Notes: generated from the sequence alone by a model not told the origin. DNA of 64,000 nt from an archaeon (GCA_020057295.1 JAGVGF010000001.1:32001-96000); one strand, 5' to 3'; positions 1 to 11,897 are shown, numbered from the stretch's first letter. A program made the numbers and translations.

Positions 1-3
1 ATA

Positions 4-3000
4 ATGAATGTTATTAATCCTACCAAAACATTACAACCATTACAATCATATAATATAACATTAAATCATACAGCACCAGCTAATAATAATAATTATACAG
101 GAGTATTAACAATTGATGATGGACAATCAGCAACAGACATAAATATACTATATGGTTCACATCTTGCAAACCTAACAATTAACAGTATCACGCCAAACAT
201 CAGCTTAAGAGCAGGAGATATAATTTCTATCAATTCTTCAATAGTCTATGAAGGCAGTCCTGTAACTGGAAACTTAACACCAATCATAATTGTTAATGGA
301 ACAACATGTACGCTTAATAGTACATCATTTGTTGGTAATTATTTCATAACTAATTGTTCATTACCATCTGCATTAGATGCAAGTTATCATAGTTTAAGGA
401 TGAATGTTGATTATTCTACAGCACTAGGAGTTATACCATTAACTAGTACACAAATTAATGGATTATACTATAAAGATGTTACTAATCCGAATGTTCAGAT
501 TATTGTGTTGGATAGTGTAGAAAACGGTGGAAGCATAACTATTTCTGTAAATACTACAGATAATACCGTCATTGATAAGGTTATTGCACAGGTCACCACA
601 CCCGTGGGAGTAATCAAGAACTTTACACTATCCAATACTAATAATGCTACAATATATAATATTACATTAAATAGTTCAACAAACCTTTCAGAACTAGGAA
701 TATTTAATGTAAGATATATTGTTAATGACACAACAGGAAATGTTAATAGTACGCAAACTACTAGTTTAGAAATTTATTCATTAAGAACATTTAGTGGTGT
801 ATTAAAAGACTTAAACAACATACCATTTGTTGTAAACTTTACATTAACAAATGGTTTAACAACAATTAACTTCTCTACCAATAGCAGTGGACACTATAAT
901 GTAACACTATACGCTAGAATATATAATATTAGTATGATATTTTCAACATATAATATTACTATATATGATGCACCACTATTTAATGTTAGTACATTAATGA
1001 ATCTTGATAGAGTTACCTCTTCAGATGTTACATCACAATTGGTTGGTGCAATTAGAGGATTTGTTGTAGAAACTCAAATGCCTGTAACTTCTATGATTGT
1101 AATAAATTTCGGTTCTGACATTGTTACAAGTAAAGATAATTTACGTGTGTATCAATGTGGTGGATGGAATTATACTAGTAGAATATGTTCAAGTTATTGG
1201 TGGCAACAGTTAGACAATCAAGTTGATAAAATAAATAATGTAGTTAGTGCATCAATACCGGTATTTGCAAATACAACAAGTGCGTTTGTATTAAGTGAGA
1301 TACCATCTAATCCTACACCGATATTGAATCTTCCTATAAAAACTGTAAGTATGGATATTAATCATTCAAGCAGTAAGACAGCATTCTTAGAAGTACAATC
1401 TATTGGTACAGCTGCAATAAATAATATTTATGCATCATGCACAAGTGGAACAATATGTACTAACGGATTTGGACTATTAACAACTAATATTAGTAGTTTA
1501 CCTATAGGAACATTTGCTTATATGAATGTTACAGTAACAGTTCCAACATATCAAGATCCGGGATTATATACTGGCACAATGAGTGTAATTGGAGGAACAG
1601 CAAGCGATACATTCACATTAAACGTTAATGTGCCTTCATTAGTATTATACAATTATACATTAAACAACAATTATCTAAATGCTGGCAGTCAAGACACGGG
1701 AACTTTCACAAATCTAAGAATAAACAATACAGGCAATGCCGCATTAATCATAAATTTAACAGCTAATAGTAGTGATATAACATTCTCAGAATCAGGGTTT
1801 ACAATAAGTAAAAATTCTTACAAAGATATATCGCTATATTATACTGCTCCAGCAAATATAGGATTATATTATTATAATATTAGTATAATCAATCCAAGTC
1901 TTGCTACTCAAAACTTTAACTTATCATTAAATGTTTCACATCAAATAGATATTACATCATTAACACCAACTCAAAGTCTTTATGCTAATGATACTATAAC
2001 ATTAAAGGCTAATGCGATGAATGGATTATCTTTTGTAATAACTAATGTTACATGGAATATTACAGTTAATGGATCAGTATGCACAAATTTACAATCATTA
2101 TATTCTTCAGCTCAAGGATTATGGATTGTAACATGTAATGTGCCATCAGTTGCAGATCGTACTAATCATACATTAAGAGTTTCAGGATATTTTGACGGAC
2201 AATATTCTTATGATACATATCCTATAATTTATGTAGATACATTCCCTCCTTCATTAGTTAATGTTACTGATAATGCTGCAAAAACTGGTGGAACAATACA
2301 AATTAATAGTACAGCAGTAGATGATAGTAACATTAGTACTGCATCAGCTACAATAATTTCGCCAATAGGAGCAACAATAAATCCTATAGTAACATTACTA
2401 AATAAAACAATAGTTTCAGAATATGTATTTACAGAACTTGGAGATTATAATATTAGTTATACAGTAACTGATGCTAATAATAACACATTAACTACAAGTA
2501 AAATTTTCGAAATATATCAACCAATCACATTTACAGGAAACGTATTCAAAGGTAATGGTCAAGGATTAAGTAACTTAACATTCAAATTATATAGACGTTC
2601 TGGTGATTTAACAGAACAATTCAGTACAGGAAATAACGGACTTTATAGTCAAGTCATCAGAAATAGAACTTATAGTGTTGTAAGTATAGATTATGGTAGT
2701 ACTAATATCTTGCTTGATAATGTAAGACTTGCAAATTATGTAAATCAATTCAATCTAGATCCTGTTAATACATCAAATATAGCAATTGCGGATACAAGTA
2801 GCGTTGTTACTGGAATAGCTGTAAACACAAATATCAGTACTACAGGCAATGTAACATTCACATATAATGGAATATTCAATGGTAATCCTTCTAATCTTAA
2901 AGTTTATAAGTGTAGTAATTGGTCATACACTAACGGAACATGTTCACAATTATATTGGACATTTATTCCATCAACATTAGGATTAGGATTTGTAACATTC

Positions 3001-6000
3001 AATATTACAGGATTCTCAGCATACGTTCTAGCATCAGCAGCAAGTCCAGCATATGTTGTCGGTGATAGTATATGTTCAGTAAATGCTGGTGAGAGTAATA
3101 GTAATTCGCCAACTGATTGTCCATCATCTGGTTCATCAACCACCACAACCACAGTAGTTAGTAGTTCTGGAGGCGGAGGAAGTAGTAGTTCTAGTAGTGG
3201 TGGTTCAACAGCAATAAGAACATCTGAAGGTATAAGTGAAAATAAATTAAAAGAAATATTATCATTAATGTTAAATCAAGATACAGGAGTTGCACTTGAT
3301 ACTTCAAGAATAAGTCGTGATTTATATCCTGGAGAATTTGCAGAAACTGTATTAAAAATTAAAAATAAATTAAATGATTCCGTATCATTAAAGATAACTG
3401 TTAGTGGAGCAATAACAGATATGGTTCATATTCCAGTACCATTCCAAGATGTTGCAATTGGTGAAACCATAAAAAATAATATATCATTTGCAATAAAACC
3501 AGATGCAAGACCAGGATTATATAGTGGAGAAATTACAGTACTTAGTGGTTCTGATCAAACACTTGCAAAAATACCTGTAGAAATAAGGATATTAGAGATT
3601 AAAGACCGTTTGTTGGATATGAAAGTTACTCCTATAACTGAGAATATTAACCCTGGAGATACAATAAAAGTTCAAATTGATGTGTTTAATTTAGGAACTA
3701 CAAAGCGTGTAGACTTACAAGTGAAGTTAAAACTTGTAGATCCAGAAACAATGGAATCTTACTCTGAAACTGAAGAGAGTATGGCTATTGAAACATCATT
3801 ATCTGTTATTAAACCATTAAAAGTCCCACAAAATATTCCTTTAGGAAGATATATTATACAAGGTGAAGGATCATATACTAATGGTCAGAGTTCTATGATT
3901 ACTCGAAGCATTGCTACAATTCAAATTGTTAGACCATGGTATAATTATATGATTGTTGGTGTTGTTCCTGTATGGATAGTATTATTAGGATTAGCATTTA
4001 TATTAATTAATATATTATTATTTGAGTGGTATGAAAAGAGGAGAGCTTCTAGGATGAAGTATCATGTTCCTGTAGATTTACATACACTGCCAATGCCTGG
4101 TCCTAGGGTGTCATTCTTAGGTAATATTGCTGATACTAATATAAGAACATTTGTTGAAGTTGATAAGTTACAGACTCATACAATAATTGCAGGTTCAACT
4201 GGTTCTGGTAAGTCTATTGCTGCACAAGTTATGGTTGAAGAAGCATTAAAGAATAATGTTGCTGTAATAGTATATGATCCAACAGCTCAATGGACTGGTT
4301 TCTTAAGAAAGTGTAATGAACGTAGAATGTTAAAAACTTATAGAGATTATGGTATGAGTGAAAGCGAGACTCGATCATTCAATGGAAATATTAGAACAAT
4401 AAGGGATGCTAGAGAGAAATTAAATATTACAAAATTATTGAAACCTGGTGAAATAACAATATTTGATGTTAGTAAATTAGAACCATCACAAATGGATTTG
4501 TTTGTTTCTAATACTGTTAAGCAAGTATTCGAAGCAAATCTTGAAGAATCTCCTCAATTAAAATTGTTAATAGTATACGATGAAGTACACAGATTATTAC
4601 CTAAATTCGGAGGATCTGGTGAAGGGTTCTTACAAATAGAGCGTGCAGTCAGAGAATTCAGAAAATGGGGTGTTGGTATCTTATTAATTTCACAAGTATT
4701 ATCAGACTTTATCGGACAAATTAAGGCGAATATTAATACAGAAGTACAAATGAAGACTCGTGATGAAGATGATCTTAATAGGACAAGAGTAAAATATGGT
4801 GATGATTTCCTAAAGATATTAGTTAAGAGTAATGTTGGAACTGGAATGATTGAGAATTCTGAATATAATAAAGGCAGACCTTATTTCATAAGTTTCAGGC
4901 CTATTTTACATTCAGTACAAAGATTGTCTGATGAAGAATTGAAGAAGTATGAAGAATACAATGGAAGGATAGATACTATAGAATGGGAAATTATGCAATT
5001 AAAAGATTATGATTATGACATATTTGATATTTCACTAGAGTTGAAGTTAGCTTCTGATAAATTAAAAGCTGGCGCGTTTAATATGGTAGATATATATCTT
5101 GAAGGAATTATCCCTCGATTAAAGAGTGCATGGGAAAAGATTGGAAAGAAACCAAAACCTTATGTTAAAGAATTAATTTCGGAAAAGGAATTAAAATCTT
5201 ATAAGGAAAAAACTAAAGATTTAGAAGGACACAAACTATTTGATAAGTCATTATTCATAAAACCATTGAGTAAGGAAGTGTTGATTGTTCAGGAAAAACG
5301 TATTGAGACTAGTATGAAATTGTTTGAGAATAACATTTCTAAAGGCATGCCTGGATTATTATTAACAAGAACAGGTCCTGATGCAATGAGGCAACAGCAT
5401 CCTAAGTTGAAAGATACTAAGATGATTTGGTTGAGTACTCAGATTAATAAGGAAAATGTCATATCTCCAAATATGATAGAACAAATGTATGAGGCTATGA
5501 ACTTGTTTATTAGTGAATGTAAAGGAGAAGAATGTGTAATACTACTAGATGGATTATCTGTAATAATCAATAATACATCATTTGATAGAACATTAAATTT
5601 ACTTGTGCATCTGAAAGATTCTACAGCAGGAAAGAATGTTACAGCTTTAATTCCTATAAATACAGACATATTGAAACGTGAGGATAAAGAACAGTTAGAA
5701 TCAGAGTTTAAGACTGTTAATGGGTGGAGAAGTGATGAAGAAATAGAGCAAGAGGATAAAGAATTGAAAGTTGAATCAAAGAAAAATTTACTAAAAGAAT
5801 CCAAATCAGTAAAAAATAATTTTATTACTACTGAAAATAATTATGAAGGCATGCAATTGATAGATTTATTAGATTTAGCAAAGCTAAAAGATGATACTAA
5901 GGAATTAAAACAAATATTCCATGTTATTAAATCAAAATATGATTCATTATCAGATAATTATAAGAAGGAATATCAAGAAAGTGTTGAATCTTTGGGTAGT

Positions 6001-6159
6001 AAATTGTACGGTGCTAATAAAATTAGTACTAGTATTAGAAGAGTTAAACATACTAAAAATAAAAAATTAATTGTTAAACGTTTAAAAATTAAACATAATA
6101 ATGTATCGCATAAAATAAAAAAGAAGTTAGTTAATAAGAAGACAAAAAAGAAGAGATAA
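4..6159 (+). CDS. Giant surface protein (repeated Ig-like/S-layer-like modules) + TM helix + HerA/VirB4-like (DUF87) P-loop ATPase + DUF835-like domain; probably 5'-truncated by the window edge
   Basis: About 1320 aa of Asn/Thr/Ser-rich beta-type sequence with many N-x-S/T sequons and an internal repeat (NLRVYQCGGWNYTSRICS / NLKVYKCSNWSYTNGTCS). TM helix at ~3950-4025. HerA-family motifs: Walker A HTIIAGSTGSGKS, VIVYDP, Walker B LLIVYDEVHRLL, REFRKWGVGILLISQ. DUF835-like GLLLTR..IWLS..VILLDGL. No signal peptide, and the frame is open at position 1. Confidence 0.85.
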   Translation: MNVINPTKTLQPLQSYNITLNHTAPANNNNYTGVLTIDDGQSATDINILYGSHLANLTINSITPNISLRAGDIISINSSIVYEGSPVTGNLTPIIIVNGTTCTLNSTSFVGNYFITNCSLPSALDASYHSLRMNVDYSTALGVIPLTSTQINGLYYKDVTNPNVQIIVLDSVENGGSITISVNTTDNTVIDKVIAQVTTPVGVIKNFTLSNTNNATIYNITLNSSTNLSELGIFNVRYIVNDTTGNVNSTQTTSLEIYSLRTFSGVLKDLNNIPFVVNFTLTNGLTTINFSTNSSGHYNVTLYARIYNISMIFSTYNITIYDAPLFNVSTLMNLDRVTSSDVTSQLVGAIRGFVVETQMPVTSMIVINFGSDIVTSKDNLRVYQCGGWNYTSRICSSYWWQQLDNQVDKINNVVSASIPVFANTTSAFVLSEIPSNPTPILNLPIKTVSMDINHSSSKTAFLEVQSIGTAAINNIYASCTSGTICTNGFGLLTTNISSLPIGTFAYMNVTVTVPTYQDPGLYTGTMSVIGGTASDTFTLNVNVPSLVLYNYTLNNNYLNAGSQDTGTFTNLRINNTGNAALIINLTANSSDITFSESGFTISKNSYKDISLYYTAPANIGLYYYNISIINPSLATQNFNLSLNVSHQIDITSLTPTQSLYANDTITLKANAMNGLSFVITNVTWNITVNGSVCTNLQSLYSSAQGLWIVTCNVPSVADRTNHTLRVSGYFDGQYSYDTYPIIYVDTFPPSLVNVTDNAAKTGGTIQINSTAVDDSNISTASATIISPIGATINPIVTLLNKTIVSEYVFTELGDYNISYTVTDANNNTLTTSKIFEIYQPITFTGNVFKGNGQGLSNLTFKLYRRSGDLTEQFSTGNNGLYSQVIRNRTYSVVSIDYGSTNILLDNVRLANYVNQFNLDPVNTSNIAIADTSSVVTGIAVNTNISTTGNVTFTYNGIFNGNPSNLKVYKCSNWSYTNGTCSQLYWTFIPSTLGLGFVTFNITGFSAYVLASAASPAYVVGDSICSVNAGESNSNSPTDCPSSGSSTTTTTVVSSSGGGGSSSSSSGGSTAIRTSEGISENKLKEILSLMLNQDTGVALDTSRISRDLYPGEFAETVLKIKNKLNDSVSLKITVSGAITDMVHIPVPFQDVAIGETIKNNISFAIKPDARPGLYSGEITVLSGSDQTLAKIPVEIRILEIKDRLLDMKVTPITENINPGDTIKVQIDVFNLGTTKRVDLQVKLKLVDPETMESYSETEESMAIETSLSVIKPLKVPQNIPLGRYIIQGEGSYTNGQSSMITRSIATIQIVRPWYNYMIVGVVPVWIVLLGLAFILINILLFEWYEKRRASRMKYHVPVDLHTLPMPGPRVSFLGNIADTNIRTFVEVDKLQTHTIIAGSTGSGKSIAAQVMVEEALKNNVAVIVYDPTAQWTGFLRKCNERRMLKTYRDYGMSESETRSFNGNIRTIRDAREKLNITKLLKPGEITIFDVSKLEPSQMDLFVSNTVKQVFEANLEESPQLKLLIVYDEVHRLLPKFGGSGEGFLQIERAVREFRKWGVGILLISQVLSDFIGQIKANINTEVQMKTRDEDDLNRTRVKYGDDFLKILVKSNVGTGMIENSEYNKGRPYFISFRPILHSVQRLSDEELKKYEEYNGRIDTIEWEIMQLKDYDYDIFDISLELKLASDKLKAGAFNMVDIYLEGIIPRLKSAWEKIGKKPKPYVKELISEKELKSYKEKTKDLEGHKLFDKSLFIKPLSKEVLIVQEKRIETSMKLFENNISKGMPGLLLTRTGPDAMRQQHPKLKDTKMIWLSTQINKENVISPNMIEQMYEAMNLFISECKGEECVILLDGLSVIINNTSFDRTLNLLVHLKDSTAGKNVTALIPINTDILKREDKEQLESEFKTVNGWRSDEEIEQEDKELKVESKKNLLKESKSVKNNFITTENNYEGMQLIDLLDLAKLKDDTKELKQIFHVIKSKYDSLSDNYKKEYQESVESLGSKLYGANKISTSIRRVKHTKNKKLIVKRLKIKHNNVSHKIKKKLVNKKTKKKR

Positions 6160-6182
6160 TTATTTTTAAAGAGGTGTGAAAA

Positions 6183-7379
6183 ATGTTATTTTTCAAGAAG
6201 AAAGGACAAGCAACAGATAATATTAATGATTCTGAAGCTGAAAAATTGACTGCGGATACTATTCCTACAGTTAGTGGTAGAGGTAATGCTGATGTTGATT
6301 TGCTTAAAGCTAAAATCATTGCTCAGGAAGAATATCGTAAAACAATTATTGAACGATTAAATAGACAGTCTGAAGAGATTGGTGAATTGCGTGCTGGGCT
6401 TGTTAATTCTCAACATGATCTTGAAAAATTAAAAGTTCAGACTGAGAAGACTATAAGTAAGGTTGAGGAAGTTAAACCTGAAGGATTATTTTTAGAGGTT
6501 AAGCATGTTGATGCTAAGATTGAGACATTAAAGGCTAAGATTTCTTTGGTTGATGATGTTAATACTAAGATTCGTGAGGAATTGCGTGATATTCGTGAGA
6601 GTGTTAAGGGTTTTAGGGGTTTGAATGAAGTTTTAAAGCTTGGTGAAGATGTTAAGGTTGATGTTACAACTTTTAGAAAGATTGAGGCTTCAGTTAATAA
6701 GGATGCTGCTAAGGTTGAAAATATCTTTGTAACATTACAAAAAACTCTTAGCGACATTCAACGTGCTAGAAATAGTATTGAGTATATTGATGAGAATCAG
6801 AAAAAATTAGATAAACAGTTGAATGAGTTGAATGAAAAAATTGTTTCTATGGCGCGTAAGGAAGATTTAGTTGATTTAAAGAGCAGTGTTAATAAAAATT
6901 TAGTATATTTAGATAAGGAGATGGATAAAATTAGAGCTATTGATACTAAGGTTACTTTGAATATTAGTAAGATGGATCAACGTCAGGCACAGATTGATGC
7001 GTTGCAGGAAAAATTAGCTAGTACTATTAGTTCTAGTGATATTAAGAAGATGGTTGAGATTGAGTCTGAATTCAAGGAATTAAAAGGGAAGGTTGTTAAT
7101 ACTGTTGATAAGGACTCTTTTACTGATTTGCGTTATATGGTTATGAAGGATATGGGTAATTTGTCTCGTAAGTTTGATCAGGAGCGTCGTGTGTTGTCTC
7201 GTAGTGTTAGTACTGCACAATCTTATCGTAAGCAGACTGTTGCTGTTGCTAGGCTTGAGAGTAAATTATCTAAGGAGAATGATAAATTAAAGCGTGAAGT
7301 TAAAATGTTGCGTGATCAATTATCATCTACAGGCAGAGATATTAAAGCATTGCAAAAGATAATAAAGAAAAACAAGTAA
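6183..7379 (+). CDS. Long coiled-coil protein
   Basis: 398 aa heptad-rich and K/E/D-rich; GAGGTG SD upstream; starts 23 bp after the ATPase fusion gene. Confidence 0.75.
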   Translation: MLFFKKKGQATDNINDSEAEKLTADTIPTVSGRGNADVDLLKAKIIAQEEYRKTIIERLNRQSEEIGELRAGLVNSQHDLEKLKVQTEKTISKVEEVKPEGLFLEVKHVDAKIETLKAKISLVDDVNTKIREELRDIRESVKGFRGLNEVLKLGEDVKVDVTTFRKIEASVNKDAAKVENIFVTLQKTLSDIQRARNSIEYIDENQKKLDKQLNELNEKIVSMARKEDLVDLKSSVNKNLVYLDKEMDKIRAIDTKVTLNISKMDQRQAQIDALQEKLASTISSSDIKKMVEIESEFKELKGKVVNTVDKDSFTDLRYMVMKDMGNLSRKFDQERRVLSRSVSTAQSYRKQTVAVARLESKLSKENDKLKREVKMLRDQLSSTGRDIKALQKIIKKNK

Positions 7380-7401
7380 AAAATTTAAATTTTTATTTTT
7401 T

Positions 7402-8097
7402 TTATAATATATCAAATAGTAAAAGTTCTGCATCATCTTTAGAAATTATGTTTATGGATTTTTCTTGTTCTATGGATGCACCATCACCTTTTCCAAGAGT
7501 GATATCATTAATGCTTATCTCTCCAGAAATCACTTGAATCCATACTCCTCTGCCTTTTTCAATATTGTAAGATATATTCTTTCCCTTCTCCATTATAGAT
7601 GAAAATAATAATACATCTTGGTTTATTATTAATGAATTTTTTCTTCCGTCATTTGATACTAATAAACATAAATTATTTTTTTTATTCTTTTCTGCAAATT
7701 TTTTCTCATCATATCTTGGTTTCAATCCTTTTTTTGATGGAATAATCCATATTTGAAGTAAGTGTACTAGTTTTTTTGAATCATTAATCTCGCTATGTTC
7801 AACACCTGTTCCCGCAGTCATAACTTGAACATCACTACGCTTAATACTAGATGTTGTTCCAGTACTATCAGTATGCGAGAGTTCTCCATCAACTATATAT
7901 GTTATAATTTCCATATCCTTATGTGGATGAGTATCAAAACCTTGTTGTGAGATAACAACATCTTCATTAATCACGCGTAGAGTCCTAAAGGACATGTGTT
8001 TTGTATCATTGTATGTATTAAAAGAAAATGTATGATATGTGTTTAACCATCCATAATCAAAGTGTCCCCTATCTTCTGACTTTCTGATTGTAATCAT
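7402..8097 (-). CDS. Pirin family protein (YhhW-like bicupin)
   Basis: RG..DYGWLNTYHTFSF, GFDTHPHKDMEIITY, HTDSTG, MTAGTGVEHSE, LLQIWI. Confidence 0.95.
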   Translation of the reverse strand: MITIRKSEDRGHFDYGWLNTYHTFSFNTYNDTKHMSFRTLRVINEDVVISQQGFDTHPHKDMEIITYIVDGELSHTDSTGTTSSIKRSDVQVMTAGTGVEHSEINDSKKLVHLLQIWIIPSKKGLKPRYDEKKFAEKNKKNNLCLLVSNDGRKNSLIINQDVLLFSSIMEKGKNISYNIEKGRGVWIQVISGEISINDITLGKGDGASIEQEKSINIISKDDAELLLFDIL

Positions 8098-8169
8098 ATC
8101 TTAAGTAAATATATGCTGTTTATAAGAATTATGAAAGATACAATTAAGGGAATGCCTGTTATTTTAATC

Positions 8170-8640
8170 TTATTTTTCTAAAATCTTTTCCATTATCAGA
8201 GAAGTACCCTCTTCAAAAATAGTCTTATATCCTAACCTTTCATAAAGTTTAACTGCTCTACTATCTTTAAAAACTTTTAAATGAATCTTATTTAATTCAC
8301 GATATAATGTTTCTTGTTCAAGAATTTTCATAATTTGTGTTCCACAGCCTTTGCCTCTAATTTGTTCTAATAATTGTATGCTGATTAGATATCCATAATC
8401 GTCTTTAAATTTGAACTCCACATATCCCACACTAGAATTTTCACATTCTATAATTCTTATATTTTTCTGATGATGATTTTCTCCAAAAGATTTTTCGTTC
8501 CAAGATCCAAAATGTTTTTGAAATGATTCCCGCATATTTTCCTTGAATAGACTAAAGATAAATTCATAATCATCATCTTCAGCATCTCTAAGAATAAATC
8601 GACATTGGTTGATAACTATCTCTTGTCTTTCTTTTTTCAT
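8170..8640 (-). CDS. GNAT family N-acetyltransferase
   Basis: Acetyl-CoA motif IRGKGCGT and AVKLYERLGY. Confidence 0.9.
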   Translation of the reverse strand: MKKERQEIVINQCRFILRDAEDDDYEFIFSLFKENMRESFQKHFGSWNEKSFGENHHQKNIRIIECENSSVGYVEFKFKDDYGYLISIQLLEQIRGKGCGTQIMKILEQETLYRELNKIHLKVFKDSRAVKLYERLGYKTIFEEGTSLIMEKILEK

Positions 8641-8700
8641 ACATTAATATTTTGCGTCTTTATTAAAAATGTTACTAGAATTATGTGATTATATTAAATC

Positions 8701-8717
8701 AGCCTCCAGCGAGAATT
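8701..8717 (-). repeat. 17-bp direct repeat of the tRNA-Thr 3' end (att-like)
   Basis: AGCCTCCAGCGAGAATT at 8701-8717 is identical to 8782-8798. Confidence 0.85.
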
Positions 8718-8781
8718 TCCTGCGCCTTTTAGTAAAAGTCGCATCAAAACTGAATGTTGAAATAAATTTCAAGCATTCTAA

Positions 8782-8899
8782 AGCCTCCAGCGAGAATTGC
8801 ACTCGCGACCTTCTGCTTACGTGCAAAATGAAATTTTGGATGTTCCAAAACTTTAGTTTTGATACTAGGCAGACGCAATAGCTACTATGCTATGGAGGC
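8782..8899 (-). tRNA. tRNA-Thr with 45-nt anticodon-loop intron (anticodon AGT if intron is 8818-8862 at 37/38; CGT if intron is at 33/34)
   Basis: Minus strand: acceptor GCCTCCA/TGGAGGC with U73 discriminator, anticodon stem TCTGC/GCAGA, T arm GCGAG-TGCAATT-CTCGC; the intron forms a nested hairpin. Confidence 0.9.
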
Positions 8900-8992
8900 A
8901 TATATTATATGATGTAATATTTTTAGATGAGCTCACGCAGTTCGTGATGCTCGTCAGTTTTTAGTGCAGGTTTTTTGCGTAAGCAAAAAAAG

Positions 8993-9078
8993 TGCGGAGG
9001 AAGGGATTCGAACCCTCGAACACACTAAGTGACAGGATCTTAAGTCCTGCGCATTTGACCAGGCTTTGCTACCTCCGC
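8993..9078 (-). tRNA. tRNA-Leu (TAA)
   Basis: GCGGAGG acceptor, CAGGA-CTTAAGA-TCCTG anticodon arm, long variable arm, GGTTCGAATCC, A73; no encoded CCA. Confidence 0.97.
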
Positions 9079-9176
9079 ATATAGCCTACGAAAAATCGGG
9101 ATATTTATAAAGTTAATTAGTAAACTTAATAAATTCCGTAAATTATATTTTGCTTAGTTTTCGAGGTATGATAAAA

Positions 9177-9629
9177 ATGGTAAAACTTGTAGAACCAAAA
9201 TCAATGGATGAATGTGTTTACTTCACTAATAGAAATATAGGAGAGAAATTCAATGGAACGGCAAGATGTTGGGTTTTCAGACAACAGTGTCCAAAATGTA
9301 AGAAGGCATTTATGGGTAAACCAGTAGTTGATGGAAAAGCAAAAATTCGTGCTTTAGAATATGTTTGTCCTAATTGTAAGTATACAGTAGAAAAAATGGC
9401 TTATGAAGAAGGATTAACAGCAAATGTAGATTATGTATGTCCAGCATGTTCTTTTCATGGCGGAATGGTTCTCCCTTTTAAGAGAAAGAAAGTTGAAGGT
9501 GTGCTAACATTAAGATTTCCGTGTGAAAAATGTAAAGGCCCAATCGATGTCACAAAAAAGATGAAAATTATAAAGAAGAAAGACAAGAAAGTAAAAGCTG
9601 CTCCAGTCGAAGATTTGGACGATGAATAA
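9177..9629 (+). CDS. Multi-zinc-ribbon hypothetical protein
   Basis: Four CxxC motifs (CPKC, CPNC, CPAC, CEKC); GAGGT SD; start at 9168 or 9177. Confidence 0.75.
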   Translation: MVKLVEPKSMDECVYFTNRNIGEKFNGTARCWVFRQQCPKCKKAFMGKPVVDGKAKIRALEYVCPNCKYTVEKMAYEEGLTANVDYVCPACSFHGGMVLPFKRKKVEGVLTLRFPCEKCKGPIDVTKKMKIIKKKDKKVKAAPVEDLDDE

Positions 9630-9692
9630 ATATTAATTTTCTATTTTTTTATTTTGATAAAACTTTATAAATTCTAGTTTAATCATGATACT

Positions 9693-11897
9693 ATGTCTAT
9701 TAATACAAATCATTATAAGAAAATACTTGTAACAAGCGCGCTACCTTATGTAAATAATGTTCCACATTTAGGCACAATGATTTGTGTAATTAGTGCTGAT
9801 GTATATACAAGATTTCTTAGATTAATGCATAAAGATGTGATTTCTGTTTTAGGAACAGATGAACACGGTACAACTAGTGAAACTAAAGCAATAGAGGAGG
9901 GTTTGACTCCTAAACAATTATGTGATAAATATTCAGCATTACAGAAGGAGATATATGATTGGTTTAATTGTGAATTTGATTGTTGGGGAAGAAGCAGTAG
10001 CAAAGAAAATGCCGAGACAACAATCGAAGTATTTAATAAATTACATCAGAATGGATATATTTCTGAGGATACACTTGAACAATTATACTGCGAACAGGAT
10101 AAGAGATTTTTAGCGGACAGATTTGTTGAAGGAGAATGTCCTAAATGCCATTACGCAAATGCTCGTGGAGATCAATGTGAAAGTTGCGGAAATTTACTTG
10201 ATGCTAAAGAACTTATTAATCCAAAATGTAAAATCTGTAAAACTAAACCAATTGTAAAAGCATCAAGGCATTTATTTATTGATTTACCAAAGATAGAGCC
10301 AAAATTAAAAGAATGGATGAAATCTGTAGAGGGTGGATGGTCAGGCAATGCAAGAACGATGACCGAAGCATGGTTAAAAGAAGGCTTAAGACAACGATGT
10401 ATAACAAGGGATTTAAAATGGGGCATAAAAGTTCCATTAAAAGGTTTTGAAGATAAAGTATTCTATTCATGGTTTGATGCACCTATAGGCTATATAGGAA
10501 TAACAAGAGAAATAAAATCTGAAAATGACGAATGGAGAAAATGGTGGTTTAATAATAATGAAGTGAAATTAGTTCAATTCATGGGCAAGGATAATATACC
10601 ATTTCACACAATATTATTTCCAGCATTTTGTATAGGAACAAATGATCCATACACTTTAATGAAAGAAATAAGTGTAAATGAATATTTGAATTATGAAGGC
10701 GGACAATTTTCTAAGAGTAGAAATGTTGGAGTATTTGGCGATGATGCACAAAGTACAGGAATACCTGCAGATGTATTTAGATATTATTTAATGATTAATC
10801 GTCCGGAAAAGAGCGATACAGAATTTTCATGGAAAGATTTCCAAATAAAACATAATGCAGAAATAGTAGGAAATTTAGCAAATTTAGTCAATAGAACAGT
10901 TGTATTTTTGAATAGAAATTATGAATCAACAATTCCTGAGTCATCATTAGAAGACAAAGATCAAGCATTACTAGAAGATATACGTGCTATAGAAAAAAAG
11001 ATTTCAAATCTAATAGAAACTATAGATATTAAGGAAGCGTTAAAGGAAGTAATGCATATCTCAAAACTCGGTAATCAATATTTACAAGATAATGAACCAT
11101 GGAAGAATCCCGATAAGCAAAGAAACGCAACAACACTTGCAGTACTTGCAAACATTGTTAAGGATTTAGCAATATTAATATCACCGTACATGCCACTTGC
11201 CGCAAATAGTATTAAAGAACAATTAAATATTTCGAGACTAGATTGGGATGATTTAGGAAAATTAACATTACATCCAGGACATAAGATAAGTAATGCACAA
11301 TTACTGTTCAAAAAAATTGAAGATAAGGATGTTAATGAATTTAGAGAAAGATTTTCAGGGAAAAGAAAAAAATCTGAAAATAAAGAATCTGTTAGCACAT
11401 CTTCAAACGCCGTAATTGGTTTTGATAAACTACAATTACGTGTAGCAAAAATTGTTGGAGTAGAAAGACATCCTAATGCTGAAAAATTATATGTAGAAAA
11501 GTTAGATTTAGGCGATGAGTATAGAACAATAGTTTCAGGACTAGTTCCATATTACACGGTTGAAGAATTATTGAATAAGAATATTGTTGTTGTAACAAAT
11601 CTTGAGCCAGCAAATCTTCGAGGGGTAGAAAGTAACGGAATGCTGCTTGCTGCTGAAGAAAATGGGGTTGTAGGATTGTTAACAACACAAGGCGAACCAG
11701 GAGATTATGTATATATAGATTCTATGAATAATGTAAAATTGGAAACCATTAAAAATTTACCAAAGGTAAACATTAAAGAATTTTCTACAATAAAAATTTA
11801 TGTTAAAGATAAAAAAGTATTATGTGAAGGTAAAGAGTTGCAAACATCTAAAGGATTATTAAGTGTAGAGAAAGTTAATACAGGCAATGTAAGATAA
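9693..11897 (+). CDS. metG: Methionyl-tRNA synthetase with C-terminal Trbp111-like tRNA-binding domain
   Basis: TSALPYVNNVPHLG, GTDEHG, Zn knuckles, WFDAPIGY, GKDNIPFH, FSKS; C-terminal HPNAEKLY..RTIVSG..GVESNGMLL. Confidence 0.98.
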   Translation: MSINTNHYKKILVTSALPYVNNVPHLGTMICVISADVYTRFLRLMHKDVISVLGTDEHGTTSETKAIEEGLTPKQLCDKYSALQKEIYDWFNCEFDCWGRSSSKENAETTIEVFNKLHQNGYISEDTLEQLYCEQDKRFLADRFVEGECPKCHYANARGDQCESCGNLLDAKELINPKCKICKTKPIVKASRHLFIDLPKIEPKLKEWMKSVEGGWSGNARTMTEAWLKEGLRQRCITRDLKWGIKVPLKGFEDKVFYSWFDAPIGYIGITREIKSENDEWRKWWFNNNEVKLVQFMGKDNIPFHTILFPAFCIGTNDPYTLMKEISVNEYLNYEGGQFSKSRNVGVFGDDAQSTGIPADVFRYYLMINRPEKSDTEFSWKDFQIKHNAEIVGNLANLVNRTVVFLNRNYESTIPESSLEDKDQALLEDIRAIEKKISNLIETIDIKEALKEVMHISKLGNQYLQDNEPWKNPDKQRNATTLAVLANIVKDLAILISPYMPLAANSIKEQLNISRLDWDDLGKLTLHPGHKISNAQLLFKKIEDKDVNEFRERFSGKRKKSENKESVSTSSNAVIGFDKLQLRVAKIVGVERHPNAEKLYVEKLDLGDEYRTIVSGLVPYYTVEELLNKNIVVVTNLEPANLRGVESNGMLLAAEENGVVGLLTTQGEPGDYVYIDSMNNVKLETIKNLPKVNIKEFSTIKIYVKDKKVLCEGKELQTSKGLLSVEKVNTGNVR

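Follow-up and report, generated by a model that had tools for sequence, protein, structure and literature searches.

We analyzed a 64,000-nucleotide (nt) stretch of archaeal DNA (GCA_020057295.1 JAGVGF010000001.1:32001-96000, G000:C4:32001-96000 in our numbering; hereafter, the window), which opens inside a giant gene encoding a very long adhesin-like region, one transmembrane (TM) helix, a HerA-clade ATPase, and a DUF835 module on a single chain. Below, "giant aa" refers to amino acid (aa) numbering on the complete 8,055-aa protein, P0001 to numbering on the part read within the window, and P0003 to the TM-plus-tail piece that served as query and model. The features, counted from the first base of the window, are as follows.

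1..6159 (+): last 2,052 codons and stop of an 8,055-aa open reading frame (ORF), open from C4:13992
1..3951 (+): C-terminal 1,316 aa of an ectodomain of ~7,290 aa, with sequon-enriched repeated beta modules (Pfam, self-BLAST, sequon counts)
3061..3120 (+): Cys motif GDSICSVNAGESNSNSPTDC (GDSICS..GES..SPTDC), giant aa 7024-7043 (regular-expression match)
about 3121-3230 (+): Ser/Thr/Gly-rich linker directly after the Cys motif (translation)
3367..3945 (+): juxtamembrane segment of 193 aa, giant aa 7126-7318, with two Ig-like/NEW3-like modules (phmmer; weak MG2 Pfam match)
3952..4008 (+): single TM helix IVGVVPVWIVLLGLAFILI, giant aa 7321-7339 (hydropathy; helix 12-39 of the P0003 model)
4069..4926 (+): HerA-clade P-loop ATPase core (Pfam DUF87, PDB sequence matches, AlphaFold2/Foldseek)
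4192-4215 (+): Walker A, GSTGSGKS (translation)
4564-4590 (+): Walker B, LLIVYDEVH (translation)
4651-4671 (+): REFRKWG motif (translation)
P0003 residues 252-253 (+): SQ motif (translation)
4930..5142 (+): conserved helical hairpin, P0003 helices 332-357, 363-377, and 381-402 (AlphaFold2 model; family consensus)
5296..5709 (+): DUF835 (PF05763), P0001 aa 1765-1902, an "inactivated KaiC" RecA-like module without an intact Walker A (Pfam)
5752..6156 (+): 135-aa helical tail with a very basic end (AlphaFold2 model; residue count)
6183..7379 (+): coiled-coil partner of 398 aa with an N-terminal MLFFKKK motif (all-helical model; homologs downstream in related loci)

Within the window, the frame is open on the plus strand from position 4 to 6159 (2,051 aa) and runs past the first base. 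In the upstream DNA, it remains open for 18,009 nt more, to an ATG at G000:C4:13992, and the complete gene (G000:C4:13992-38159; 24,168 nt) has a single stop, zero internal stops, and zero N. A first-pass annotation of this DNA had placed the protein and its coiled-coil neighbor at 4-7379; its features lie near the places it gave, but position 4 is not the gene start, and the size of ~2,050 aa implied by the window ORF gives way to 8,055 aa with a signal-anchor-like segment near the N terminus. The longest exact DNA repeat within the gene is 36 nt, and collapse of repeats is therefore unlikely. In addition, a 652-nt contig from a related strain (public run X1, possibly not independent of the assembly; 28 differences) bridges window positions 3819-4470, where ectodomain, TM helix, and Walker A meet.

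A hydropathy scan of the whole protein detected two hydrophobic segments only: aa 11-29, which is signal-anchor-like and preceded by R7 and K8, and aa 7321-7339, followed directly on the cytoplasmic side by the positive patch EKRRASRMK. Between them lies an ecto part of 7,291 aa, leaving a cytoplasmic tail of 716 aa. The ecto part contained 434 N-X-S/T sequons, compared to 253.6 ± 13.0 in composition-preserving shuffles, while the tail contained 7, compared to 4.8 ± 2.0; for the ectodomain portion inside the window, the corresponding numbers were 58 and 31.5 ± 4.5. Cysteines were distributed as 69 in the ecto part and 3 in the tail (72 in total), and K+R accounted for 3.3% of the former but 17% of the latter. 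Because of the hydrophobic segments, the asymmetry in sequons, Cys, and K+R, and the positive patch after the TM helix, we place the long part outside and the tail inside the cell, in agreement with the topology first proposed, i.e., ectodomain outside, motor inside, and one TM helix between them.

Upstream of the window, Pfam matches in the ectodomain comprised right-handed beta-helix/NosD domains (first third, 2.6e-14 and 9.9e-13; second third, 5.1e-25), NPCBM_assoc/NEW3 (1.7e-19), and MG-like domains; across the ectodomain as a whole, weak matches to MG2, bMG3, and Big_6 were seen. Self-BLAST delineated at least seven related beta-helix-containing units at aa ~1,000-4,570 (35-64% identity), plus two paired units at aa 4,800-5,830. 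Inside the window, aa 6001-6404 aligned with aa 6612-6989 (~400 aa each, ~600 aa apart, 27-31% identity), which, together with the sequon excess, bears out the sequon-rich repeated beta modules of the first-pass annotation; the Cys motif and Ser/Gly linker that it described are likewise present. When the juxtamembrane segment (aa 7126-7318) was used as a phmmer query, it matched 325 of the 371 family proteins that we fetched, and the best match lay just upstream of the ATPase module in the 40 rows inspected. Since this segment is kept directly before the TM helix and ATPase, the conserved unit of the family spans the membrane. At the opposite end of the ectodomain, right after the signal anchor, giant aa ~120-250 consist of low-complexity near-repeats of NVTENVTQE(V/I)(V/I)(T/V)NVTEN, a dense array of sequons.

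We assessed the class of the motor from sequence and from fold. Pfam detected DUF87, the HerA central domain (7.3e-14, 52.8 bits against a cut-off of 23.2), and HerA_C (1e-6, 28.2 bits against 22). All of the following remained below their cut-offs: TrwB_AAD_bind (19.9 bits against 20.5, covering only the Walker A region), FtsK_SpoIIIE (18.4 against 24), AAA_10 (18.8 against 27.5), ResIII (weak, 7.4e-4), and DEAD; PF03135 (CagE_TrbE_VirB) gave no Pfam match at E ≤ 0.1. The best NCBIfam model was the Ced ATPase "CedD" (4.6e-11, 42 bits against a cut-off of 600), and the HerA equivalogs scored 31-35 bits against cut-offs of 800-970. In searches of the PDB with the single sequence and with a 93-sequence profile, the best matches were HerA structures (8wiv, 8xau, 9x1l, 4d2i, 9c1m, and 8ziq; 2.9e-8 for 8wiv and 1.4e-8 for 4d2i), while DotL reached 3e-3 only, by profile. 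The AlphaFold2 model of P0003, built from the 93-sequence alignment, had a mean predicted local distance difference test score (pLDDT) of 83.1, with at least 88 in each 10-residue block from 11 to 420. Foldseek against the PDB ranked HerA first (4d2i, 8wiv, 8xau, and 9x1m; E about 2e-11), and the superposition on 4d2i gave a root-mean-square deviation of 4.2 Å over 349 columns; EssC/EccC followed at ranks 9, 20, and 48, FtsK occupied ranks within 27-47, and TcpA, a coupling protein, came at rank 35. No VirB4 chain was among the PDB sequence and fold matches listed.

The ATPase motifs reported in the first pass (Walker A, Walker B, REFRKWG, and SQ) were all found, and the loss of catalytic residues across homologs, which it had named as a point that would speak against its reading, was not seen: K92 (Walker A), D215 (Walker B), H218, R239, E240, R242, K243, W244, G245, and S252 of P0003 are invariant in the 93 aligned sequences. 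The module therefore carries a RecA-like core of the HerA clade with Walker A, Walker B, and an arginine motif. In the alignment with 8wiv, REFRKWG stands opposite KEGRKYG of HerA (the E-G-R-K-x-G motif), and its arginine is presumably the trans-acting finger. Conversely, CagE_TrbE_VirB or AAA_10 would be expected above threshold in a VirB4/TraG-like protein, and neither was. A VirD4/TrwB coupling protein would have two N-terminal TM segments, a nucleotide-binding domain plus all-alpha domain, and TrwB_AAD_bind or T4SS-DNA_transf, and an FtsK/SpoIIIE protein would have an above-threshold motor, a gamma domain, and near-universal presence; with TrwB_AAD_bind and FtsK_SpoIIIE below their cut-offs and the family in 52 of 301 genomes sampled from the phylum, the protein fits neither set. 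On these sequence and model grounds, we favor a HerA-clade motor over a restriction enzyme or a VirB4, so that of the earlier label "HerA/VirB4-type" the first half stands, by the top sequence and fold matches, and the second does not, given AAA_10 below its cut-off and no PF03135. Its closest solved fold and sequence class is HerA, whether from the archaeal HerA-NurA translocase of DNA end resection (PDB 4d2i, 9x1l) or from defense systems (8wiv, 8xau), with which it shares both Walker motifs and the one that aligns with E-G-R-K-x-G.

The helical hairpin behind the core is also kept in a paralog encoded in the same genome. It is followed by DUF835, for which the DUF835-like module noticed earlier at ~5275-5710 has a firm Pfam match (1.1e-20, 74.3 bits against a cut-off of 33.1, profile positions 3-136 of 136). 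This is the sole DUF835 in the genome (genome search, 81.4 bits); Galperin et al. 2018 (PMC5847659) tabulate the domain among output domains, under the label "iKaiC". Across the 371 family proteins and the ORFs of 80 related loci, a DUF835 tail occurred in seven others, namely, P0004, P0016, P0126, P0280 (the L036 ORF), and the ATPase ORFs of L020, L024, and L026, all of which fall in the long-ectodomain group. The very basic tail is also as described, with K or R at 21 of the last 50 residues. The domain order of the protein is signal anchor, beta-helix/Ig-like ectodomain of ~7,290 aa, juxtamembrane Ig-like pair, TM helix, HerA-clade ATPase, hairpin, DUF835, and basic tail; ORF, topology, and Pfam matches hence uphold the earlier statement that one polypeptide joins a giant adhesin-like region to a cytoplasmic HerA-type motor and DUF835.

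To place the protein among its relatives, P0003 was searched exhaustively with HMMER against 1.84 billion representative proteins. At E ≤ 1e-3, 2,157 proteins matched, a number that fell to 668 at E ≤ 1e-10 and to 374 at E ≤ 1e-30; among the 150 rows listed, the ATPase lies at the C-terminal end of proteins of 404-6,253 aa. A word-indexed search returned 840 proteins at E ≤ 1e-3 in the 407-1,295-aa range (7,999 candidates scored) and 463 in the 1,296-3,700-aa range (7,996 candidates scored). The best family matches were 45-62% identical over about 420 residues, and the matches carried source names such as "DUF87 domain-containing protein" of Woesearchaeota, Pacearchaeota, Nanoarchaeota, Nanohaloarchaea, and Aenigmarchaeota. 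The whole module was present in 332 of the 371 fetched proteins, preceded by a part of very variable length (median 612 aa, 10th-90th percentile 260-2,040, range about 190-7,339) and followed by a part with a median of 159 aa; the maximum of 7,339 aa among these 332 belongs to the giant protein studied here. Species-representative genomes held at least 594 loci encoding a relative (594 of 598 pattern matches listed), and 80 related loci were retained for neighborhood comparison. The recurrence of the fusion in other DPANN genomes, a check suggested with the first-pass annotation, thus extends to hundreds of assemblies. In a tree of the 332 ATPase modules, the long-ectodomain forms cluster in one region; local supports around the giant protein are 0.29-0.64, and we draw no sister or gene-transfer claim from them. 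Open frames among members from the phylum include some of 9,416, 5,479, and 5,222 aa.

Several further copies were observed alongside these. The first of those phylum frames, from the same order (G109:C10:175535-176728), is longer than the giant gene described here and ends in an ATPase module of 39% identity; a second copy, interrupted by stops (3 TAA), lies ~1 kb away (match ends 174335 and 175535). The paralog in the genome under study is on contig C2, measures 1,297 aa, is 54% identical in the module, and has a TPR tail. It belongs to an operon (L007, G000:C2:119001-133000) of co-directional ORFs at 1098-1427, 1420-4596, 4632-8525, 8588-9814, 9871-10926, and 11007-11525, which begins with a 109-aa RHH-like protein and a 1,058-aa PKD surface protein with a C-terminal TM helix, continues with the 1,297-aa ecto-TM-ATPase protein, and ends with two DUF5752 proteins sharing an NDFANW motif and a coiled-coil partner.

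We then examined the coiled-coil gene next to the giant gene, which starts 23 nt past its stop. The model of its product is all-helical (pLDDT 71, predicted template modeling score 0.24), and members share conserved motifs. Of the 80 related loci, 56 have a homolog, always downstream and co-directional, among them the Nanohalarchaeota locus L034 (gap 32 nt); in the long forms, the gaps measure 3-123 nt. The paralog operon has one as well (351 aa, 28% identical to the window 6183-7379 protein, E 7e-30), so that this neighbor recurs both in related loci and within the genome. In 8 of the 24 loci that lack a partner, less than 1.5 kb of sequence follows the ATPase gene, and 10 of the other 16 represent a ~780-aa subfamily; L020, whose 3,339-aa protein carries DUF835 and whose gene is followed by 7.8 kb of sequence, has no partner homolog. 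Judged by homology and position, the coiled-coil neighbor is a conserved partner gene of the family. Pfam on 36 of its members returned scattered coiled-coil families only, a PDB profile search yielded only coiled-coil noise (NadA and haemagglutinin HA2), Foldseek gave no match at E ≤ 0.001, and the Atlas contained unnamed Nanobdellota/Woesearchaeota clusters with no named family. A complex prediction for the ATPase core (residues 40-445) with the partner (residues 1-260) scored 0.00, which is evidence neither way. An ESCRT-III/PspA-like identity, considered on account of an N-terminal M-x-L/F-F-G-K-K-K pattern, was dropped (Vipp1/PspA at E about 4, probability 0.06-0.08). In the region from 3500 to 7500, the coding strand also shows a strong purine excess (GC skew 0.24-0.43, AT skew up to 0.18), which most likely reflects the Lys/Glu-rich composition of tail and partner.

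This design has been published under the names SPEARE and "giant membrane-anchored extracellular proteins", contrary to the earlier remark that no characterized member with a huge ectodomain was known; the precedent includes a proposal of adhesion plus translocation. In the sections of the papers covered here, Hamm et al. 2019 (PMC6642349) report SPEARE proteins from nanohaloarchaea, with lengths of up to 8,553 aa, that are mostly extracytoplasmic, have a TM segment near the C terminus, and carry a conserved intracellular part read as a type III restriction enzyme; SPEARE-like sequences are reported from Woesearchaeota, Aenigmarchaeota, Micrarchaeota, and Altiarchaeales, along with proteomic evidence of synthesis, and RLG14629.1 is named as a match. 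Their SI Fig. S17 and Tables S2-S4 list homologs in Woesearchaeota and other DPANN archaea and may already hold close relatives of the present protein. Reva et al. 2023 (PMC10266531), again as far as covered, re-analyzed the family (SVXNc_0300, 9,409 aa; BNXNv_0298, 8,880 aa) and gave the order Sec signal, Ig-like tandem, TM, and cytosolic ATPase. They found no endonuclease, labeled the domain VirB4/TraG-like, disputed the protease assignment, and proposed host binding via the Ig-like repeats with effector secretion and ATPase-driven transfer into the host. Other examples in the same parts of this literature are NAR1_1133 (5,998 aa) and Ca. Nanopetramus SG9 (8,553 aa) (PMC6642349/PMC10266531), as well as a 12,127-aa protein of EX4484-52 archaea (PMC8470020); later papers, in the passages covered, refer to SPEARE as presumed to act in host contact and present no functional test of it. 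The original "restriction endonuclease" name can be traced to a weak ResIII match, which is present here too. Our literature searches found no paper linking DUF87/HerA to DPANN surface proteins or Woesearchaeota.

By sequence, the giant gene is almost certainly a full-length member of this family. RLG14629.1 (P0284, whose contig is locus L034) matches the module at E 1.7e-160 with 53% identity, and it is through this protein, rather than the type proteins themselves, that the conserved intracellular portion is connected. The topology agrees as well, in that the protein is very long and mostly extracytoplasmic, with the TM helix towards the C terminus and a cytoplasmic C-terminal region. Shared with SPEARE are, moreover, the signal sequence, an adhesin-like ectodomain of thousands of residues, a conserved cytoplasmic P-loop ATPase, and a small-genome DPANN archaeon as bearer. 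The present protein differs in having beta-helix/NosD, NPCBM_assoc, and MG-like domains, with no laminin-G, protease, toxin-like, or WD40 part detected by Pfam, and in having DUF835 and a basic tail behind the ATPase. It is followed by a coiled-coil gene, in contrast to the second VirB4/TraG-like ATPase of nanohaloarchaeal loci (Reva et al., in the parts covered), and its lineage is not halophilic, judged by the source names of its nearest homologs. The pairing of giant gene and coiled-coil partner was not found in the portions of the SPEARE literature covered, which mention a C-terminal coiled coil and a second downstream ATPase.

We consider it probable that this SPEARE-family member serves in a contact apparatus. 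The variable beta-helix/Ig-like outer part would attach to a host or partner cell, through the glycans or surface layers of that cell. Solved HerA, FtsK, and EssC relatives form rings, and the ATPase tails may likewise assemble into a ring below the membrane, which would bundle several chains via their TM helices and juxtamembrane domains. Ring and coiled-coil partner together could constitute the cytoplasmic base of the apparatus, where ATP hydrolysis would power either the movement of a DNA or protein polymer at the site of contact or the building or remodeling of the surface structure. DUF835 and the basic tail may be an add-on that regulates the motor or binds nucleic acid or lipid. By analogy with relatives, the contact-coupled translocase of the first pass, with translocation of DNA or protein cargo at the contact site, is a tentative suggestion that we hold to be less likely than not, and a role as hub, anchor, or assembly factor is put forward about as tentatively. 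SPEARE-type proteins are the most conspicuous candidates for the parts by which DPANN archaea grip their hosts and obtain material from them. The present locus adds a complete, 8,055-aa, DUF835-bearing example from a non-halophilic lineage and supports three general points on the family, i.e., a conserved unit that spans the membrane, a HerA-clade motor, and a coiled-coil partner in most loci, which make it more testable by ATPase assays, ring formation, partner pull-downs, and tomography.

Several observations weigh against a contact-apparatus base of this kind. With a single TM helix, each chain would contribute little to a conduit, and no polytopic membrane protein, VirB4-type second ATPase, or other type IV-like gene adjoins the giant gene. 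The laminin-G domain and the serine-protease region of SPEARE were not found in the whole protein by Pfam (for laminin-G and serine protease, no match at E ≤ 0.01 in the upstream ectodomain or at E ≤ 0.1 in the part within the window). In comparison with classical HerA, the N-terminal HAS-barrel is missing, since the first ATPase strand of the AlphaFold2 model begins ~45 residues past the TM helix, the ATPase thus following straight on the membrane; nor is there a NurA, Sir2, or DUF4297 partner at the locus. Finally, the family is patchy. Within its own family-level group, 17 of 18 other genomes carry a member; of the 22 other families sampled in the order, 4 do, as do 52 of 301 high-quality genomes from the phylum. 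No ortholog of the giant copy was found in the 12 congeners searched (completeness 81-100%), whose best matches (53-58% identity) are at the level of the genome's own ~1,300-aa paralog. Given the patchy family and congener matches no closer than the paralog type, the giant copy appears to be an accessory gene.

A possible, though less convincing, account is that the protein is a structural surface fiber or adhesin. Its ATPase would then move no cargo between cells but act as an oligomerization hub that also anchors the protein in the cytoplasm or, with the coiled-coil partner, as the motor by which the fiber itself is mounted, tensioned, or recycled. The single TM helix per chain and the lack of a polytopic membrane partner would suit such a fiber, a stalk base common to the family would fit the juxtamembrane pair conserved outside the membrane in 325 of 371 proteins, and both the conserved partner and the operons that the ~1,300-aa subfamily shares with other large single-pass surface proteins are in keeping with it. 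However, the fully conserved catalytic motifs suggest real mechanical work beyond scaffolding, so does a motor identity of 52-62% among the best-matching members, whose source names span several DPANN groups, and solved relatives of the HerA/FtsK clade are generally known to act on DNA or secreted proteins.

Rather doubtful, in our view, is an undescribed archaeal trans-envelope machine with the juxtamembrane Ig-like pair, TM helix, HerA-type ring, hairpin, and separately encoded coiled-coil partner as its core. A hexamer would gather six adhesin arms onto a host cell and, where the cells touch, drive DNA or protein through the membrane of the symbiont; in this sub-branch, DUF835 and tail would gate the motor or load nucleic acid. 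The logic of such a machine would be analogous to type VII secretion or to the coupling-protein motors of type IV secretion systems (T4SS). The ATPases of such systems (type VII EssC/EccC; T4SS VirD4/TrwB/TcpA/DotL; crenarchaeal Ced) are also ring-type P-loop motors, tethered by N-terminal TM segments, and EssC/EccC and TcpA were among the Foldseek matches, with CedD as the best NCBIfam match. In contrast to them, the giant protein scores far under the respective cut-offs (CedD 42 against 600 bits; AAA_10 18.8 against 27.5), and its locus contains no channel-forming partner genes. To our knowledge, no EssC/EccC, T4SS coupling protein, or Ced ATPase is fused to an ectodomain that is hundreds to thousands of residues long.

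A defense or sensor module resembling Sir2-HerA or DUF4297-HerA, whose ectodomain would be a virus decoy or a sensor signaling inward, is very improbable. The best PDB matches do include defense HerA (8wiv and 8xau), PADLOC reports HerA at 2.7e-18 and mad8 at 5.2e-17, and the distribution is patchy and accessory, but these matches amount to clade-level HerA similarity, with the repair HerA of Sulfolobus and Thermococcus scoring equally well, and no Sir2, DUF4297, or nuclease effector was found at the locus or among clusters common to many of the 80 loci. We know of no anti-phage HerA system in which membrane anchoring with an ectodomain is a feature. More improbable still is an FtsK-like housekeeping DNA pump for segregation or division that carries a surface domain by chance; although the protein is a membrane-anchored member of the FtsK-HerA superfamily with FtsK motors among its fold matches, FtsK_SpoIIIE stays below its cut-off and the ectodomains are hypervariable (190-7,339 aa). 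With no effector partner and a family found in 52 of 301 genomes, both defense and division-type DNA pumping are unlikely. An assembly chimera or a mis-called ORF joining an adhesin gene to an unrelated ATPase gene, a concern because giant repetitive genes are error-prone in metagenome assemblies, because this genome comprises 6 contigs, and because mis-assembly at this junction was a doubt raised in the first pass, is effectively refuted by the same junction across hundreds of independent assemblies, the preservation of juxtamembrane segment, TM helix, and ATPase as one unit, the related-strain contig across the junction, the absence of exact repeats beyond 36 nt, and a frame free of stops and N: the ectodomain-ATPase fusion is a trait of the family.

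Turning to the wider neighborhood, the giant gene is preceded by genes for prolyl-tRNA synthetase (ProRS) and a class II Asp/Lys-type synthetase (both in L004 9144-13835), and for a polyprenyl synthetase, and the partner is followed by pirin, GNAT, and methionyl-tRNA synthetase (MetRS; window 9693-11897). Aminoacyl-tRNA synthetase genes thus stand on both flanks, Asp/Lys-type and ProRS upstream and MetRS downstream. No mobile-element gene lies beside the giant gene, and a mobile-element reading was set aside in view of weak PHROGs matches and housekeeping flanks. Among the 80 related loci, an ORF cluster of ~90 aa recurs upstream in 35. Elsewhere in the genome, two more DUF87/HerA-type ATPase genes without an ectodomain are found at G000:C1:140678-141340 and C1:249859-250566 (frames of 527 and 468 aa), one of them at the very end of contig C1.

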